Shown here piece by piece: positions 2,014-12,563 of a stretch of DNA of 64,000 nucleotides. The DNA comes from a virus (lineage: Duplodnaviria > Caudoviricetes), in the IMG/VR virus record IMGVR_UViG_3300009424_000011, positions 1 to 64,000 of that record; one strand, given 5' to 3'. The notes beneath the pieces were generated by a model. The model had not been told where the DNA came from, did no database searches, and worked only from the letters and a program-made list of their open reading frames with translations. A program made the translations under genes and the position numbers. Each line of letters begins with the position of its first letter. Positions within the stretch are counted from its first letter, which is position 1.

Positions 2014-2014
2014 T

Positions 2015-2406
2015 GTCCCGAAACTGTTGCTACGCTCGGGACCACGCGCCACCTAGAGGTGTGAGGCCCTAGGGATTTTGTCGCTTACGCGGCGAGACGA
2101 ATCTCTTCGCTGGCGACGACCACATCATTGTCGTTGACAGTTGATGAATTTGATCCGCATACGGGCGGTATCTAAACGGGGCGCTTCTCCACATCGGCCT
2201 TACGGATCGATCCTAAATTCACCCCCATCAAAGAACCCCGCTGCCTTACAAAGGACCGTCGTCCAGAGCCTAGGCGGATCGTCACCCTGACCGCGTTTCA
2301 GGCGGCCGCAGGGGTCTTTGGTGGAGGTGCCGAGTTCTGCCCTCGGGTCTCCGCTTGACTTAGATGGCCTTCTACGACCGTAGTCTTCATGCCGAAGCAC
2401 TTGACG
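2015..2406 (-). ncRNA. ssrA: Two-piece (circularly permuted) tmRNA; tag (A)VNDNDVVVASEEIRLAA
   Basis: Acceptor piece ends GACCCGAGGGCAGAACTCGGCACCTCCACCA at 2319; intervening hairpin 2227-2318; coding piece starts GGGGGTG at 2226 with G3-U70; tag ORF 2138-2085 ends LAA-stop. Confidence 0.93.
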
Positions 2407-2412
2407 AGGAGA

Positions 2413-2441
2413 AGAATAAGCGATTCGCACATCACTGTCAA
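2413..2441 (-). promoter_or_regulatory. tmRNA promoter with GANTC
   Basis: TTGACA-17-TATTCT; spacer contains CGAATCG. Confidence 0.75.
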
Positions 2442-2466
2442 CTGAAAATTGAGAGCGCGTCGAAAA

Positions 2467-3634: not shown

Positions 3635-3722
3635 TGGAGGAAAGCGGGGGCATCGAACCCCTGACCCCGAAGGGTCACGACAGCGTTCCAAGCTGATTAG
3701 GGAGCCGACCCACGCGCTTTCC
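3635..3722 (-). tRNA. tRNA-Ser(GGA), 8/4 fold
   Basis: 8-bp acceptor GGAAAGCG/CGCTTTCC; 4-bp T stem; loop TTGGAAC; long variable arm. Confidence 0.85.
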
Positions 3723-3730
3723 ATATGTTG

Positions 3731-3818
3731 TGGAGGAAGGTGGAGGCATCGAACCCCTGACCCCGAAGGGTCACCCCGGCTTAGCAAGCCAGTTGAGGAG
3801 CCGACCTCGGCACCCTCC
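3731..3818 (-). tRNA. tRNA-Ser(GCT), 8/4 fold
   Basis: 8-bp acceptor GGAGGGTG/CACCTTCC; 4-bp T stem; loop TTGCTAA. Confidence 0.85.
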
Positions 3819-4444: not shown

Positions 4445-4529
4445 TGGTGGGTGCGGTGGGACTCGAACCCACAAAGCGGCCGAATTTTAAGTCCGGTGAG
4501 TCTACCAATTCCCCTGTCGCCACGCACCC
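4445..4529 (-). tRNA. tRNA-Leu(TAA), atypical fold
   Basis: Loop CTTAAAA; A73; short variable region; insertion before the D arm. Confidence 0.8.
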
Positions 4530-4634: not shown

Positions 4635-4718
4635 TGGTGTGAGCGGGGAGACTCGAACTCCCAAAGCTACCGGGTCTGAGCCGGCAAGGTATACCATTCC
4701 CTATGAAGCCACGCTCAC
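4635..4718 (-). tRNA. tRNA-Leu(CAG), atypical fold
   Basis: Loop CTCAGAC; same insertion architecture as Leu(TAA). Confidence 0.8.
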
Positions 4719-4762: not shown

Positions 4763-4855
4763 TGGTGGGTGACCGAGGACTCGAACCTCTCGCCATCCGT
4801 CCCCCACGTTCTGAAACGGCACCGGGGTTACAGGCCGGCAGGGGGAAGATCACCC
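4763..4855 (-). tRNA. tRNA-Tyr(GTA), rearranged (no conventional D arm)
   Basis: Loop CTGTAAC; acceptor and T arm with ACCA; TCCCCC near the 5' end pairs with GGGGGA after the variable arm. Confidence 0.7.
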
Positions 4856-4867
4856 GAAACTTGTGAT

Positions 4868-4907
4868 GAAACGAAAATAGCGCCAGAACCCGGTGGGCTC
4901 TGACGCT
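4868..4907 (-). terminator. Attenuator terminator, operon C
   Basis: AGCGTCAGAGCCC-ACC-GGGTTCTGGCGCT followed by ATTTTCGTTTC. Confidence 0.75.
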
Positions 4908-4917
4908 CTGAAAATGC

Positions 4918-5014
4918 TGGAGGAGCGAGTGGGATTTGAACCCACGGAACACATCTCTCGATGGTCCAACGGTTTTCGAGACCGCCGCAATAACCCAGAC
5001 TCTGCCACCGCTCC
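4918..5014 (-). tRNA. tRNA-Ser(CGA)
   Basis: Loop CTCGAAA; long variable arm. Confidence 0.9.
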
Positions 5015-5049
5015 TCTTGGAAAGAGAGCAGCGCGTCAGGGCTGCTCCC

Positions 5050-5133
5050 TTAGAAGGGTGACAGGGAACTATACTGGCTATGCCAGCATAGTAAGGAGCC
5101 CGTAAGGCTTTGCAAGGCGGTCTGTGTGAACAT
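5050..5133 (-). CDS. Leader peptide C, MFTQTALQSLTGSLLCWHSQYSSLSPF
   Basis: ATG lies 7 nt after the -10 box (apparently leaderless); 21 of 26 non-initiator codons are Ser/Leu/Thr/Gln/Cys/Trp/His/Tyr, the downstream tRNA set. Confidence 0.85.
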   Translation of the reverse strand: MFTQTALQSLTGSLLCWHSQYSSLSPF

Positions 5134-5140
5134 GCTGCGA

Positions 5141-5169
5141 AGTATATGGAAGGAAGTTAAAGGAGTCAA
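5141..5169 (-). promoter_or_regulatory. sigma70 promoter of tRNA operon C
   Basis: TTGACT-17-TATACT; GACTC overlaps the -35; A-tracts upstream. Confidence 0.85.
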
Positions 5170-5211
5170 CACTTATTTTTGCTGACGGTGTTTTTTTTTT
5201 TGATCTGGGCG

Positions 5212-5281
5212 TGGAGCCCCCGGCCGGAGTCGAACCGACGCCTTAGAGCTTAGAAGGCTCATGGCCCGCCTCGGCGGGGGC
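5212..5281 (-). tRNA. tRNA-Arg(TCT) with truncated D arm
   Basis: 70 nt; loop CTTCTAA; perfect acceptor; CCA. Confidence 0.75.
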
Positions 5282-5288
5282 GGTGATC

Positions 5289-5363
5289 TGGTGCAAGAAG
5301 ATGGGTTCGAACCACCGACGCGTAGGTTTTCAACCTACCGCTCTACCACTGAGCTATTCCTGC
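5289..5363 (-). tRNA. tRNA-Phe(GAA)
   Basis: Loop TTGAAAA. Confidence 0.92.
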
Positions 5364-5369
5364 AATCTC

Positions 5370-5445
5370 TGGTGCCGCCTCAGGGACTCGAACCCCGGTC
5401 TTGGGCTTCGGACGCCCGCGCTCTCTCCAGTTGAGCTAAAGCGGC
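5370..5445 (-). tRNA. tRNA-Arg(CCG)
   Basis: Loop GTCCGAA. Confidence 0.88.
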
Positions 5446-5456
5446 ACTGACTTATC

Positions 5457-5530
5457 TGGTAGCCCTACCGGGGCTCGAACCCGGTTTCTCGCCGTGAAAG
5501 GGCGGACTCTTACCCATAGAGGATAGGGCC
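5457..5530 (-). tRNA. tRNA-Glu(TTC)
   Basis: Loop CTTTCAC. Confidence 0.9.
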
Positions 5531-5538
5531 ATATAAAT

Positions 5539-5615
5539 TGGTGGTCTGCGAGGGAGTCGAACCCATCAACCTTCCGCTTCGTAGGCGGTTGCTCTTCCAG
5601 TTGAGCTTCCAGACC
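5539..5615 (-). tRNA. tRNA-Arg(ACG)
   Basis: Loop CTACGAA. Confidence 0.88.
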
Positions 5616-5634
5616 GAACTCGTAAACTAATTCA

Positions 5635-5708
5635 TGGAGGCCCTACCGGGGCTCGAACCCGGTTTCTCACCGTGAGAGGGTGGACTCTTACCCATAGAGG
5701 ATAGGGCC
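5635..5708 (-). tRNA. tRNA-Glu(CTC)
   Basis: Loop CTCTCAC; near-duplicate of Glu(TTC). Confidence 0.9.
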
Positions 5709-5766
5709 TCATATGGTCATATATGGCACACAAGACGGGCTTGTAGGTCATATCTGACCGGTTAAC

Positions 5767-5875
5767 TGGCGCAGCAGCCGGGATCGAACCGACATCTTCC
5801 GGTTCTTCGCCCGGCCATCCTAGTCCCAGAGGTCATGACACTCTGTCCCCGTTGTCGGGGATTAGACGATACTGC
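5767..5875 (-). ncRNA. tRNA-like RNA with two extra hairpins in the D loop and an 8-nt anticodon loop
   Basis: T arm GTCGG-TTCGATC-CCGGC; GCCA end; 6-bp acceptor. Confidence 0.6.
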
Positions 5876-5879
5876 AAAC

Positions 5880-5954
5880 TGGCGACCGTGACGGGATTCG
5901 AACCCGCAACCTTCGGATAGACAATCCGCTGCCCAACCGTTGGGCTTCACGGCC
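5880..5954 (-). tRNA. tRNA-Asp(GTC)
   Basis: Loop TTGTCTA; G73. Confidence 0.9.
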
Positions 5955-5966
5955 AATAATAAGTGA

Positions 5967-6042
5967 TGGAGCGGCCGGCGGGGATCGAACCCGCGCTGAC
6001 GGAGGGTGGAAGCCTCCCGCTCTACCGCTGAGCTACGGCTGC
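5967..6042 (-). tRNA. tRNA-Gly(TCC)
   Basis: Loop CTTCCAC; U73. Confidence 0.9.
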
Positions 6043-6070
6043 ATCATCACTCATCACTAACAACTTCGAC

Positions 6071-6145
6071 TGGAGCGGGTAGCGGGGATCGAACCCGCGA
6101 CCTTCTACTTGGCAAGCAGGCGCTCTACCACTGAGCTACACCCGC
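6071..6145 (-). tRNA. tRNA-Gly(GCC)
   Basis: Loop TTGCCAA; U73. Confidence 0.92.
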
Positions 6146-6171
6146 ATCTAGTCGTAAACTATTGATATTCT

Positions 6172-6247
6172 TGGTAGACCGAGTGGGGTTCGAACCCACG
6201 ACCTCAAGATTAAAAGTCCCGCGCTCTGCCTACTGAGCTACCGGTCC
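6172..6247 (-). tRNA. tRNA-Lys(TTT)
   Basis: Loop CTTTTAA. Confidence 0.92.
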
Positions 6248-6265: not shown

Positions 6266-6304
6266 GAAACGAAAAACGCCCCACCGGGCGACCGGTAGGG
6301 CGTT
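6266..6304 (-). terminator. Attenuator terminator, operon B
   Basis: AACGCCCTACCGG-TCGC-CCGGTGGGGCGTT followed by TTTCGTTTC. Confidence 0.8.
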
Positions 6305-6322
6305 CAAAAATCGATGTCGTTT

Positions 6323-6398
6323 TGGTGGACCTTGTAGGGCTTGAACCTACCACCTTGCGGTTAAGAGCCGCCTGCTCTACCTACTGAGCTAAAGGTCC
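6323..6398 (-). tRNA. tRNA-Lys(CTT)
   Basis: Loop CTCTTAA; A73. Confidence 0.92.
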
Positions 6399-6434
6399 GT
6401 CAAAACGACACCGATAGCTCTACGCACTACCGGG

Positions 6435-6497
6435 TTACGAGGTGAAACCTCGTTCTTCGCCTCTCCGGCGATCTCGTTTGGTAAATCCGTAGGTCAT
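6435..6497 (-). CDS. Leader peptide B, MTYGFTKRDRRRGEERGFTS
   Basis: AGGA upstream; 14 of 19 non-initiator codons are Lys/Gly/Asp/Glu/Arg/Phe, the downstream tRNA set. Confidence 0.85.
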   Translation of the reverse strand: MTYGFTKRDRRRGEERGFTS

Positions 6498-6550
6498 AGC
6501 AGTTACTCAAAATCCTGTTTGGTGGACACTGTGTCCGTTGTTGAAGCCGA

Positions 6551-6579
6551 ACTATATGTGATTCGATTCGTTATGTCAA
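6551..6579 (-). promoter_or_regulatory. sigma70 promoter of tRNA operon B
   Basis: TTGACA-17-TATAGT; tandem CGAATCGAATCA in the spacer. Confidence 0.88.
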
Positions 6580-6608: not shown

Positions 6609-6785
6609 TTACCCTGCGAGGAGGGGCGGCGTCGCCAATTCGAACTCAGCCCCAGTCGCCGTGGTGGCAATGATCCGGTCACCCTTGGCTTCGATGTCAG
6701 CGACGTTGACGATCTTACCGCACGAATGAGTGATGGTCATACCAGCACCAGCCCGGCGGATTTTCCAGCTATACAAAGTGTTCAT
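6609..6785 (-). CDS. Small hypothetical protein (58 aa)
   Basis: AAAGGA RBS before ATG (MNTLYSWKIRR...). Confidence 0.6.
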   Translation of the reverse strand: MNTLYSWKIRRAGAGMTITHSCGKIVNVADIEAKGDRIIATTATGAEFELATPPLLAG

Positions 6786-6847
6786 GTCGGTTCCTTTAGC
6801 ATGATTGCTTCGGCCGACAATAGGCCAAATTTTGGCCGTGTCAAGTA

Positions 6848-6931: not shown

Positions 6932-7006
6932 TGGTGCTTCGTGAAGGTGCTGCCCCTCCTACCTCTGCCTTGTCACGGCAGCGCTCTACTGGTGAGCTAA
7001 CGAAGC
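6932..7006 (-). tRNA. tRNA-Val(GAC), non-canonical T loop
   Basis: Loop GTGACAA; T loop GGCAGCA. Confidence 0.8.
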
Positions 7007-8105: not shown

Positions 8106-8106
8106 A

Positions 8107-8182
8107 TGGTTGGTGATGCAGGCTCTGCCCCTGCCGCCTCTGGTATGTGACACCAGCGCTCTCCTGAATGAGCTAATCACCA
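8107..8182 (-). tRNA. tRNA-Val(CAC), non-canonical T loop
   Basis: Loop GTCACAT; T loop GGCAGAG. Confidence 0.8.
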
Positions 8183-8212
8183 ACAAACTCTTTGTCCCAT
8201 CCGATTTGACGG

Positions 8213-8323
8213 ATGCCGGGGACGAAATCAACAAGGCGCTCTAACCACCTGAGCTACACCGGAGCCTTGCCCCGGTGGCCGGATTCGAACCGGCGTCCTC
8301 CTCGTTCTACAACCGCCCCGCAT
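8213..8323 (-). ncRNA. Circularly permuted tRNA mimic (YrlA/Y-RNA-like)
   Basis: Order is T arm, loop-closed acceptor stem, D arm; the 5' and 3' ends pair in place of the anticodon arm. Confidence 0.7.
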
Positions 8324-8461
8324 ACGCCGGTTAATTACTCCGGCTTAGACGCGTCTCAACGAGACGGTTCGAAACGTCCCAGTGGTTTTACTAGCTCCGC
8401 TGATCGTGCGGGGCACCTGACGATCTCGGCGATCGACGAGGAGGTGGCTGGGTCACCTATC

Positions 8462-8532
8462 TGGTAGCAAAGGGTGGATGTGCGCCACCGGGTCAAAGGC
8501 TTATGAGGCCCCGCCCCCACTGAGGCTCTGCT
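8462..8532 (-). tRNA. Degenerate tRNA-Met(CAT)
   Basis: Loop CTCATAA; ACCA; tiny D arm; T loop CGCACAT. Confidence 0.6.
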
Positions 8533-8538
8533 ATAACT

Positions 8539-8629: not shown

Positions 8630-8705
8630 TGGTCAGGATCGTAGGGCTCGAACCTACGGCCTTCCGGTCCCAAACCGGACGCTCTTCCAACTGAGCTAGA
8701 CCCTG
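8630..8705 (-). tRNA. tRNA-Pro(TGG)
   Basis: Loop TTTGGGA; C1-G72; A73. Confidence 0.9.
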
Positions 8706-8742
8706 AAACGAAATCGGGGGCCATGTTGCCATGGCCCCCGAT
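8705..8742 (-). terminator. Attenuator terminator, operon A
   Basis: ATCGGGGGCCATG-GCAA-CATGGCCCCCGAT followed by TTCGTTTC, abutting tRNA-Pro. Confidence 0.85.
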
Positions 8743-8771
8743 CGAGATAACTGCTTGGAGAGTGAAGTGGC

Positions 8772-8861
8772 CTAGCCACCAACCATCTGTTCGCACGCCA
8801 TCGCGACCGGGACCATAATGGCCGGTGCTGCTGGGTTATTCATGGCGACTACGTTGAACAT
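8772..8861 (-). CDS. Leader peptide A, MFNVVAMNNPAAPAIMVPVAMACEQMVGG
   Basis: AGGA upstream; 22 of 28 non-initiator codons are Asn/Val/Ala/Met/Pro/Ile, the downstream tRNA set. Confidence 0.88.
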   Translation of the reverse strand: MFNVVAMNNPAAPAIMVPVAMACEQMVGG

Positions 8862-8913
8862 GGTTGAACTCTGAAATCCTGTTTGGCCGGAACATCCCGG
8901 TCTTGATGATCGA

Positions 8914-8942
8914 AGTGTAACGACATCCGATTCGAATGTCAA
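8914..8942 (-). promoter_or_regulatory. sigma70 promoter of tRNA operon A
   Basis: TTGACA-17-TACACT; CGAATCG in the spacer. Confidence 0.88.
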
Positions 8943-10279: not shown

Positions 10280-10418
10280 AAGGTTATCCCGGTGAAGCGG
10301 TCCTCGCGGACCTGACTGCGCTTGCCTGAATTGACCGATCGGGACCGGCGGGGTTAAGTGGCCTTACCCCCTTTATGTGAGTTGCCTCACACTATCGCCA
10401 TCAGGCTGGCATTCCGTC

Positions 10419-12170: not shown

Positions 12171-12563
12171 CTACGAGAACACCGAGAATGGTGGGGTGGG
12201 TAGACCTTCTTCCAAATAGGAAAGATGATGGTCAATGCGGCGCACGGCGAGGATCAGCTTGGCTGCCTCAGCGTCATACACCTCTTTCATCATGTGGCAA
12301 TGATCATAAAGCCGGTTGATGTAGTCCAGTTTCAGAAGCGCCAGATGTTTCACCGCCGCCACCAAGATCGGACTCTCTTCCTCGACTACCAATGTGAAGT
12401 CATAGTCCACAGTCAGGTCGATCACCTGCGGCTGCATGGTTTCGCCGATAAATCTGATACGATCGATGTTCGAGCAACCATCAGGTCCGTTCGCACGGTG
12501 ATCGGTGATCAGCGCATCGTGGATTTCTTCCAAGGTCATTACCGGGCCTTCGGACATGCACAC
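12171..12563 (-). CDS. Hypothetical protein
   Basis: ORF with phage-like codon usage; start uncertain. Confidence 0.55.
   Translation of the reverse strand: MCMSEGPVMTLEEIHDALITDHRANGPDGCSNIDRIRFIGETMQPQVIDLTVDYDFTLVVEEESPILVAAVKHLALLKLDYINRLYDHCHMMKEVYDAEAAKLILAVRRIDHHLSYLEEGLPTPPFSVFS

Follow-up and report, generated by a model that had tools for sequence, protein, structure and literature searches.

How does a phage that carries a long array of tRNA genes control their transcription? The reason that phages encode tRNAs has been debated for decades, with codon compensation as the usual view, and to our knowledge the regulation of phage tRNA genes has barely been described. A newer view is that phage tRNAs replace those destroyed by host defences (PMC10264068, PMC11555353, PMC12409363).

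The question is raised by a 64,000-nucleotide stretch of viral DNA (the window), taken from the start of a 96.8-kb IMG/VR virus record, whose minus strand contains, from about position 10,300 to 2,000, an array of 27 tRNA genes (ARAGORN, default settings) and a permuted alpha-type tmRNA. A sequence-only reading of one part of this array had proposed an attenuator in which a strand just past the stop codon of an Arg-rich leader pairs with the 5′ arm of a terminator, across an embedded tRNA-Lys(CUU) around which an inner stem closes, and all of these elements are indeed present on the minus strand where that reading had placed them. We refer to the region as module B, and consider it probable that it is a ribosome-mediated (leader-peptide) transcription attenuator gating ten phage tRNA genes. 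This interpretation draws on the sequence and its comparison among relatives, namely on the parts themselves, two helices that exclude each other, the closing stem, a kept reading frame and a match between leader codons and gated tRNAs; translation of the ORF, the efficiency of termination, the timing, the direction of regulation and the read-through are inferred.

Module B, its phage and its relatives

The phage is a large phage of sphingomonad bacteria. Its nearest isolated relative is Erythrobacter phage XM05, followed, as judged by helicase similarity, by Erythrobacter phage vB_EliS-L02, Sphingobium phage Lacusarx and Citromicrobium phage RXM. The two-piece (permuted) tmRNA at the end of the array (2014–2445, minus strand) is of the alphaproteobacterial type and fits a sphingomonad or other alphaproteobacterial host.

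Homologous modules were gathered by five routes: through the proteins that neighbor module B, by BLAST among the fetched loci, by searching metagenomes for the pattern of hairpin H2, by searching isolated phages for the helicase, and by searching IMG/VR and genomes for the pattern of hairpin H1 (hairpins are listed in Table 1). Thirteen distinct module B sequences were compared, that of the window and 12 further variants, which come from uncultured relatives (L008, L004, L005, L013 and L012), isolated phages (XM05, vB_EliS-L02 and Lacusarx), further IMG/VR contigs (V1, which is L017 and is identical to L021 and L022; V2, which is L018; V3, which is L020), and a 126.5-kb contig of Sphingobium sp. 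MK2 (V4, which is L024; NZ_JAZDXA010000011). V1–V4 were retrieved by means of H1 and the AAA codon, so both features are fixed by construction in these variants. The V4 contig, which lies within a bacterial assembly, has a Lacusarx-type module B and roughly equals the genome of Lacusarx in size; it probably represents a phage genome that was co-assembled with that of its host. A candidate in a Muribaculaceae MAG (L023) was rejected as a chance pattern match within a coding region. Strict DNA patterns gave no matches in IMG/VR, the pattern of the pairing between strands A and T5′ gave zero matches in the genome collection, the neighboring 192-aa protein has no tblastn match among isolated phages, and Citromicrobium phage RXM has the helicase with no tRNA array adjoining it.

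The order of the parts is identical in all 13 variants, each with the embedded tRNA-Lys(CUU). Their positions in the window are given in Table 1.

Table 1. Parts of module B in the window, in order of transcription.
Feature	Positions	Strand	Description
Sigma-70-type promoter	6551–6579	minus	TTGACA-17 nt-TATAGT; 11 of 12 consensus matches
Hairpin H0	6524–6536	minus	Transcript 5′ end; 5 bp, loop CAG; from folding
5′ UTR motif	6505–6520	minus	AAACAGGATTTTGAGT; recurs before the Pro-module leader ORF (near 8865–8880)
Leader ORF	6435–6497	minus	MTYGFTKRDRRRGEERGFTS; 20 codons plus TAA, from ATG at 6497 to TAA at 6435
Presumed regulatory codons 7–18	6479–6444	minus	KRDRRRGEERGF
Hairpin H1	6457–6471	minus	Within the ORF; TCGCC/GGCGA
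Hairpin H2	6437–6453	minus	Ends on the first base of the stop codon
Strand A (antiterminator 5′ strand)	6422–6433	minus	CCGGTAGTGCGT; 1 nt past the stop codon
Closing stem, 5′ arm	6401–6415	minus	Six bases past strand A
tRNA-Lys(CUU)	6323–6398	minus	Encoded CCA; in the antiterminator loop; Rfam tRNA, 64.8 bits
Closing stem, 3′ arm	6310–6324	minus	Overlaps C75-A76 of tRNA-Lys(CUU)
Intrinsic terminator hairpin	6274–6305	minus	14 bp (9 G-C), then TTTTTCGTTT; 6305–6272 with U5; six bases past the closing stem
Terminator 5′ arm, T5′	6303–6292	minus	ACGCCCTACCGG
Terminator loop	6291–6288	minus	
Terminator 3′ arm, T3′	6287–6276	minus	
Mini-hairpin	6277–6290	minus	5 bp, G-C; terminator loop and end of T3′; predicted only when A holds T5′
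U tract	6266–6276	minus	TTTTTCGTTTC
Gated block	5212–6247	minus	Ten tRNA genes; starts 26 nt past the terminator

The TTGACA of the promoter is invariant in the nine variants aligned over this region, TTGAC precedes the leader in the other four, and the leader ORF starts about 47 nt past the likely transcription start. H0 is changed on both sides at two of its five pairs among seven variants, and vB_EliS-L02, Lacusarx and V1–V4 have different sequences at its site that are able to form a hairpin. H2 likewise has some changes on both sides (one pair is G-C instead of U-G in V3) and is shorter in the Lacusarx type. The H1 stem never varies among the variants, substitutions being confined to its loop. 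The terminator hairpin and its U tract are predicted in all 13 variants (there are no termination data); the energy calculated for this strong hairpin is about −26 kcal/mol in the window and ranges from −22 to −27 kcal/mol over the seven variants for which it was obtained.

The gated block consists of the genes for tRNA-Lys(UUU), Gly(GCC), Gly(UCC), Asp, Glu(CUC), Arg(ACG), Glu(UUC), Arg(CCG), Phe and Arg(UCU). No promoter-like site was seen in the 26-nt spacer between the terminator and the first of these genes, and the possibility that the ten have a promoter of their own, either in this spacer or overlapping the terminator, found no support. Elsewhere, runs of 11–18 A residues lie directly upstream of the −35 box in the promoter of the Ser module (5196–5206, minus strand; see below) and in the module B promoter of L012 (about 12,510–12,530, minus strand), and these could be UP-element-like tracts. 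A 58-codon ORF between tRNA-Ala and the module B promoter (6609–6844, minus strand) has a good Shine-Dalgarno sequence and its own promoter-like site; it is absent at that place in XM05 and has no Pfam match, and no Pfam match was found for the five small ORFs in the array.

The terminator and the antiterminator helix

Strand A is Watson-Crick complementary to T5′ at 11 of 12 positions (6433–6422 with 6303–6292), as the sequence-only reading had claimed, and an 11 of 12 complement anywhere in the 147-nt leader arose in just 22 of 100,000 dinucleotide-preserving shuffles (2.2e-4). The two strands are 118–125 nt apart, and 146 nt separate the end of A from that of T3′. Pairs were counted on an alignment anchored at the first base of A, MAFFT having misplaced strand A of Lacusarx.

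There are several features of the A:T5′ helix among the 13 variants. First, six pairs are invariant, two are compensatory and two are retained through wobble, the last being pairs 1 (G-C/G-U) and 4 (C-G/U-G). Second, pair 6 reads G-C in V2 and V3 but A-U in the 11 other variants; the T3′ partner of the same T5′ base is G in all variants (the terminator pair goes from U-G to C-G), so that only the antiterminator helix calls for the change in A. Third, pair 10 is C-G in nine variants, U-A in Lacusarx, V2 and V3, and U-G in V4, with Lacusarx having the matching substitution in A, T5′, T3′ and the terminator loop alike. Fourth, vB_EliS-L02 has kept the last G of T5′ though its terminator no longer pairs that base. 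Finally, position 8 is mismatched in every variant (U-C, U-U or C-C), and it follows from this constant mismatch that the antiterminator stays weaker than the terminator.

The inner stem proposed to close around the whole tRNA-Lys also withstood the comparison. It has 15 bp including one G-U (6415–6401 with 6324–6310), is changed on both sides at 11 of the 15 pairs, and extends the acceptor stem by way of a 2×2 internal loop, forming with A:T5′ an interrupted helix of about 27 bp. All five whole-structure measures exceeded those of 500 of 500 shuffles, and pairing dropped from 87% to 33–50% when the partners were slid by 1–3 columns. The covariation events are few and the phages related, and these statistics therefore speak for consistency and should not be taken as probabilities. 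That the antiterminator helix is mutually exclusive with the terminator is supported at the level of the sequences. The mini-hairpin predicted beside the U tract when A holds T5′ is available to 12 of the 13 variants, and is changed on both sides in Lacusarx and V3.

The competition between these helices was followed in equilibrium thermodynamic models, which do not address kinetics. In transcripts that end before T3′ is complete, the minimum-energy structure has A:T5′ stacked on the closing stem, and the terminator competes once T3′ is present in the same series. The unbound segment from A to the U tract favors A:T5′ plus the mini-hairpin in 11 of 13 variants, by 2–8 kcal/mol, and 10–12 terminator pairs return in all 13 when A is barred from pairing. 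The ribosome was then represented as a 28-nt mask in ensemble calculations on the whole leader. With the mask at the stop codon, the probability of the terminator is 0.81–0.99 in every variant; with Arg codon 10 in the A site, that of the antiterminator is 0.80–0.99 in 10 of the 13, the antiterminator not being clearly favored in three or four Lacusarx-type variants (Lacusarx 0.65, V2 0.34, V3 0.31, V4 0.00). Predictions for the unmasked leader differ among variants; that of the window has a terminator probability of 0.98, which arises via local pairing of codons 2–6 with A that is not conserved. A conserved protector (1:2) helix between codons 1–8 and A was considered and rejected, the duplex being no better than shuffles in five of seven variants, and protector-like pairing in the window itself is modest.

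The leader reading frame and the three-block array

An in-frame ATG or GTG and a stop codon are kept in all 13 variants, delimiting an ORF of 18–20 codons whose translation is inferred. The C-terminal 12–14 residues are nearly invariant (core KRDRREGxERGF). The nucleotide sequence that leads from the start codon to the Lys codon is almost wholly different among lineages and occurs in nine versions (TYGFT, TTRFG, LDFGR, TFGRT, TFERT, FTRFG, FFGT, MFDR and RFGF), every one of which has an in-frame ATG (GTG in L012) five or six codons upstream of AAA and no stop codon between. The stop codon is 0–1 nt upstream of A in all 13 variants, despite differing last residues (FTS, FSL, FTL). The Shine-Dalgarno sequence is weak in most variants (GAG or GGA at 6–9 nt, AGGA 17 nt upstream); it is GAG, 8 nt upstream of the ATG, in the window and AAGGAG, 8 nt upstream of the GTG, in L012.

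The regulatory run had been described as using four different Arg codons, and these are present within codons 7–18 (CGA, CGC, CGG and AGA, with CGA a second time). The emphasis on Arg is nonetheless too narrow, as the 12 codons (Lys, Arg, Asp, Arg, Arg, Arg, Gly, Glu, Glu, Arg, Gly, Phe) between them call for all six amino acids of the gated block, namely Lys, Arg, Asp, Glu, Gly and Phe, and all 12 are readable by the ten downstream tRNAs (6247–5212). Over the leader as a whole, 14 of 19 residues are of the type of the downstream block, a level matched by only 1,650 of 500,000 random six-residue sets. In the variable N-terminal part this composition persists and the sequence does not (29 of 42 residues are of the block B type, by manual count), behavior that would be expected of a codon sampler. 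AAG, the codon of the embedded tRNA-Lys(CUU), is missing from every leader.

Module B is one of three blocks that make up the array (extra low-threshold tRNAs included), every block being preceded by a promoter, a short ORF and a terminator. The block of the Pro module serves Pro, Val, Ile, Asn, Met and Ala, that of module B serves Lys, Gly, Asp, Glu, Arg and Phe, and that of the Ser module serves Ser, Tyr, Leu, Thr, His, Gln, Cys and Trp, so that with the low-threshold tRNAs the three span all 20 amino acids. Residues of each leader match its own block in 22 of 28 cases (Pro), 14 of 19 (B) and 21 of 26 (Ser). The total of 57 of 73 was reached by none of 2,000,000 random 6/6/8 partitions of the amino acids, and the other five ways of assigning leaders to blocks give 5–30 matches. 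The Pro and Ser leaders are conserved in relatives, with in-frame indels.

The two other modules differ from module B in their layout. The Pro module (8705–8942, minus strand) has a promoter, the same 5′ UTR motif as module B and the leader ORF MFNVVAMNNPAAPAIMVPVAMACEQMVGG; its terminator is directly upstream of tRNA-Pro(UGG), with no embedded tRNA, and an invariant segment of the ORF, ATGGTCCCGG, is able to pair with the terminator 5′ arm (GGGGGCCAT in the window, GGGACC in XM05). The Ser module (4868–5169, minus strand; 5040–5260, minus strand, in L015) has a promoter whose −10 box is just 7 nt from the nearly leaderless ATG, and the leader MFTQTALQSLTGSLLCWHSQYSSLSPF, followed by a hairpin with CTGACGC in its loop, an embedded tRNA-Ser(CGA) and a terminator with GCGTCAG in its 5′ arm. 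Both arms of this terminator are changed in Lacusarx (A-U to U-A) and the leader loop is not; because the loop has not followed, pairing across the tRNA is less well supported in the Ser module than in module B.

Several further genes of the array escape default detection or are of unusual form. Two tRNA-Val-like genes missed by ARAGORN at its default settings (6935–7006 and 8106–8180, minus strand; anticodons GAC and CAC) have unusual T loops, GGCAGCA or GGGCAGA and not TTCGAAT, and similar genes are present in XM05. Five tRNA or tRNA-like genes found at low threshold or by eye (4765–4862, 4636–4713, 4445–4529, 3731–3818 and 3635–3722, minus strand) comprise a Tyr(GUA)-like gene whose D region is odd, Leu(CAG), Leu(UAA), Ser(GCU) and Ser(GGA). 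The 433-nt stretch from tRNA-Pro(CGG) to tRNA-Ile (8106–8538, minus strand) contains tRNA halves in unusual order, with a T arm and acceptor 3′ strand upstream of a 5′ half, a possible permuted tRNA mimic.

Proposed mechanism, alternatives and known systems

The course of events that we propose is as follows. Transcription would begin at the promoter, and a ribosome would translate the 20-codon leader. Fast decoding of codons 7–18 would carry the ribosome to the stop codon, with its mRNA channel over about the first ten bases of A, and with A covered T5′ would be free for T3′, such that transcription would end past tRNA-Lys(CUU). A stall at a hungry Lys, Arg, Asp, Glu, Gly or Phe codon would leave A free; the closing stem around the folded tRNA-Lys(CUU) would bring A beside the emerging T5′, and the two would pair before T3′ is synthesized. 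Once A:T5′ has formed, just a 5-bp hairpin would be left at the U tract, and polymerase would continue into the ten tRNA genes. The presumed outcome is negative feedback on tRNA supply, with tRNA-Lys(CUU) made either way, and suggests that the phage makes the gated tRNAs when they become scarce for its ribosomes.

From toeprinting and footprinting it is known that a ribosome whose A site contains a stop codon protects about 10 nt past that codon, and with the stop codon 0–1 nt from A, positions 1 to 9 or 10 of A would be covered. The proposal that a ribosome at the stop codon covers the antiterminator strand therefore fits the spacing in all 13 variants, and it also fits the masked folds; that the ribosome remains there during the transcription of some 146 nt is only inferred. 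The length of this gap requires a ribosome that is long-lived at the stop codon or arrives there repeatedly (over some seconds), or else a pause, and no pause signal was identified in the module. Also against the proposal stand the Shine-Dalgarno sequence, weak in most variants, the lack of a conserved protector helix, the constant mismatch in A:T5′, the small number of independent covariation events and the less clear behavior of Lacusarx-type variants in the model. In the read-through state, the model also leaves open that the mini-hairpin beside the U tract might cause weak termination. A bolder extension, which we regard as unlikely, is that the embedded tRNA is more than a spacer and serves both as another sensor and as a timer: folding during transcription together with the closing stem, it would set a delay in which the ribosome can act before the terminator is synthesized, while RNase P cleavage at its 5′ end would sever A, and together with the two sister modules it would form a three-channel homeostat covering all 20 amino acids. 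If this were so, read-through would depend on both decoding speed and spare capacity for tRNA maturation, and the homeostat could switch on replacement tRNAs when host defence destroys tRNAs.

Leader-peptide attenuation is not the only reading of these parts. The RNA switch could be real and its input something other than the position of a ribosome, such as RNase P cleavage at the 5′ end of the embedded tRNA or a phage or host factor bound to A, H1 or H2, with the ORF incidental or otherwise used. The covariation backs the helices and not the trigger, the Shine-Dalgarno sequence is weak in most variants, the near invariance of H1 and H2 resembles that of binding sites, and a cut at the tRNA 5′ end would, we infer, detach A from the transcript. 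However, the frame, the start codon and the 0–1 nt spacing from stop codon to A are kept through unrelated N-termini, and leader composition follows its own tRNA block in three separate modules; both are unexplained without translation, and we doubt that such an input is the answer. Were translation granted, the product itself could be what is conserved, as a micropeptide with the core given above that acts in trans beside an ordinary single-tRNA transcription unit. Its last 12–14 residues are nearly invariant, and peTrpL of Sinorhizobium is reported to be an attenuator leader peptide with a function in trans (PMC7298713). We nonetheless find this very improbable: the residues that do not vary are those encoded in the H1 and H2 stems, and an N-terminus that conserves composition and not sequence is what a codon sampler should show and what a folded or binding peptide should not. 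A micropeptide would moreover be compatible with attenuation and does not exclude it.

Two further alternatives concern the helices. A:T5′ and the closing stem could together be a maturation helix, processed by RNase III or a similar enzyme, that excises tRNA-Lys(CUU) from read-through transcripts, the terminator being merely leaky and unregulated. The closing stem prolongs the acceptor stem and with A:T5′ reaches about 27 interrupted base pairs, and stems bracketing stable RNAs are known from rRNA operons. Yet no other tRNA of the array has such a stem, a codon-matched ORF with its stop codon placed on A is left unexplained, and the conservation of both A:T5′ and the terminator, which exclude each other, points to a decision rather than a platform; it seems improbable that processing is all that these strands serve. 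It is barely credible that the complementarity of A and T5′ is a functionless by-product, for example of a partial duplication of a terminator arm. A (CCGGTAGTGCGT) does resemble T3′ (CCGGTGGGGCGT), but the chance of such a complement is 2.2e-4, and A is kept in 13 variants whose flanks have diverged, changing in step with T5′.

If module B is a leader-peptide attenuator, the phage gauges decoding capacity directly and tRNA is made on demand; the logic of attenuation would extend from enzymes to tRNA genes, in an unusual design with a structured RNA gene in the loop of a regulatory helix, held by a covarying stem. Lacusarx, XM05 and vB_EliS-L02 were isolated on named hosts, which makes the idea directly testable. 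Full-text literature searches returned no paper describing leader-peptide control of tRNA genes, and in the genome papers of Lacusarx and vB_EliS-L02 the words 'attenuation' and 'leader' are absent and no control element within the tRNA array is described.

Three known systems invite comparison. As in T-box riboswitches, read-through would be set by the state of the tRNA pool via a choice between terminator and antiterminator; T-boxes, unlike module B, bind uncharged tRNA directly, have no ORF, and control genes for aminoacyl-tRNA synthetases and amino acids. A T-box was rejected, as an Rfam scan of the module matched tRNA only, both with the gathering threshold and with E values allowed up to 1, and so gave no sign of a stem I specifier loop or of the conserved T-box sequence to which the tRNA acceptor end binds. 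As in the RNase III processing stems of rRNA operons, leader and trailer pair across a whole structural RNA gene. Unlike those stems, module B brackets a single tRNA, with a stem of 12–15 bp and an outer extension that competes with the terminator, and there are no cleavage data.

The closest likeness is to the enterobacterial attenuators trpL, hisL, pheL, leuL, thrL and ilvL. Module B resembles them in having a short ORF near the promoter that is rich in regulatory codons, and an intrinsic terminator with one strand in common with an antiterminator; the position of the stop codon is also alike, such that a terminating ribosome would cover the antiterminator strand. Module B fulfils the sequence-level features of leader-peptide attenuators save for a conserved protector (1:2) helix, which is typical of trpL and is not required of every such attenuator, and unlike its enterobacterial counterparts it keeps a 5-bp hairpin in the read-through state. 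The distance from A to the end of T3′ is about half as long in the trp leader as the 146 nt of module B. The thrL and ilvL leaders sample more than one amino acid; module B samples six, and has a complete tRNA gene and a closing stem between its antiterminator strands. It gates phage tRNA genes and not biosynthetic enzymes, so the molecules sensed and the molecules produced are of one class. The proposed mechanism is classical; its novelty lies in what it acts on, tRNA genes, and in the presence of a tRNA within the switch.
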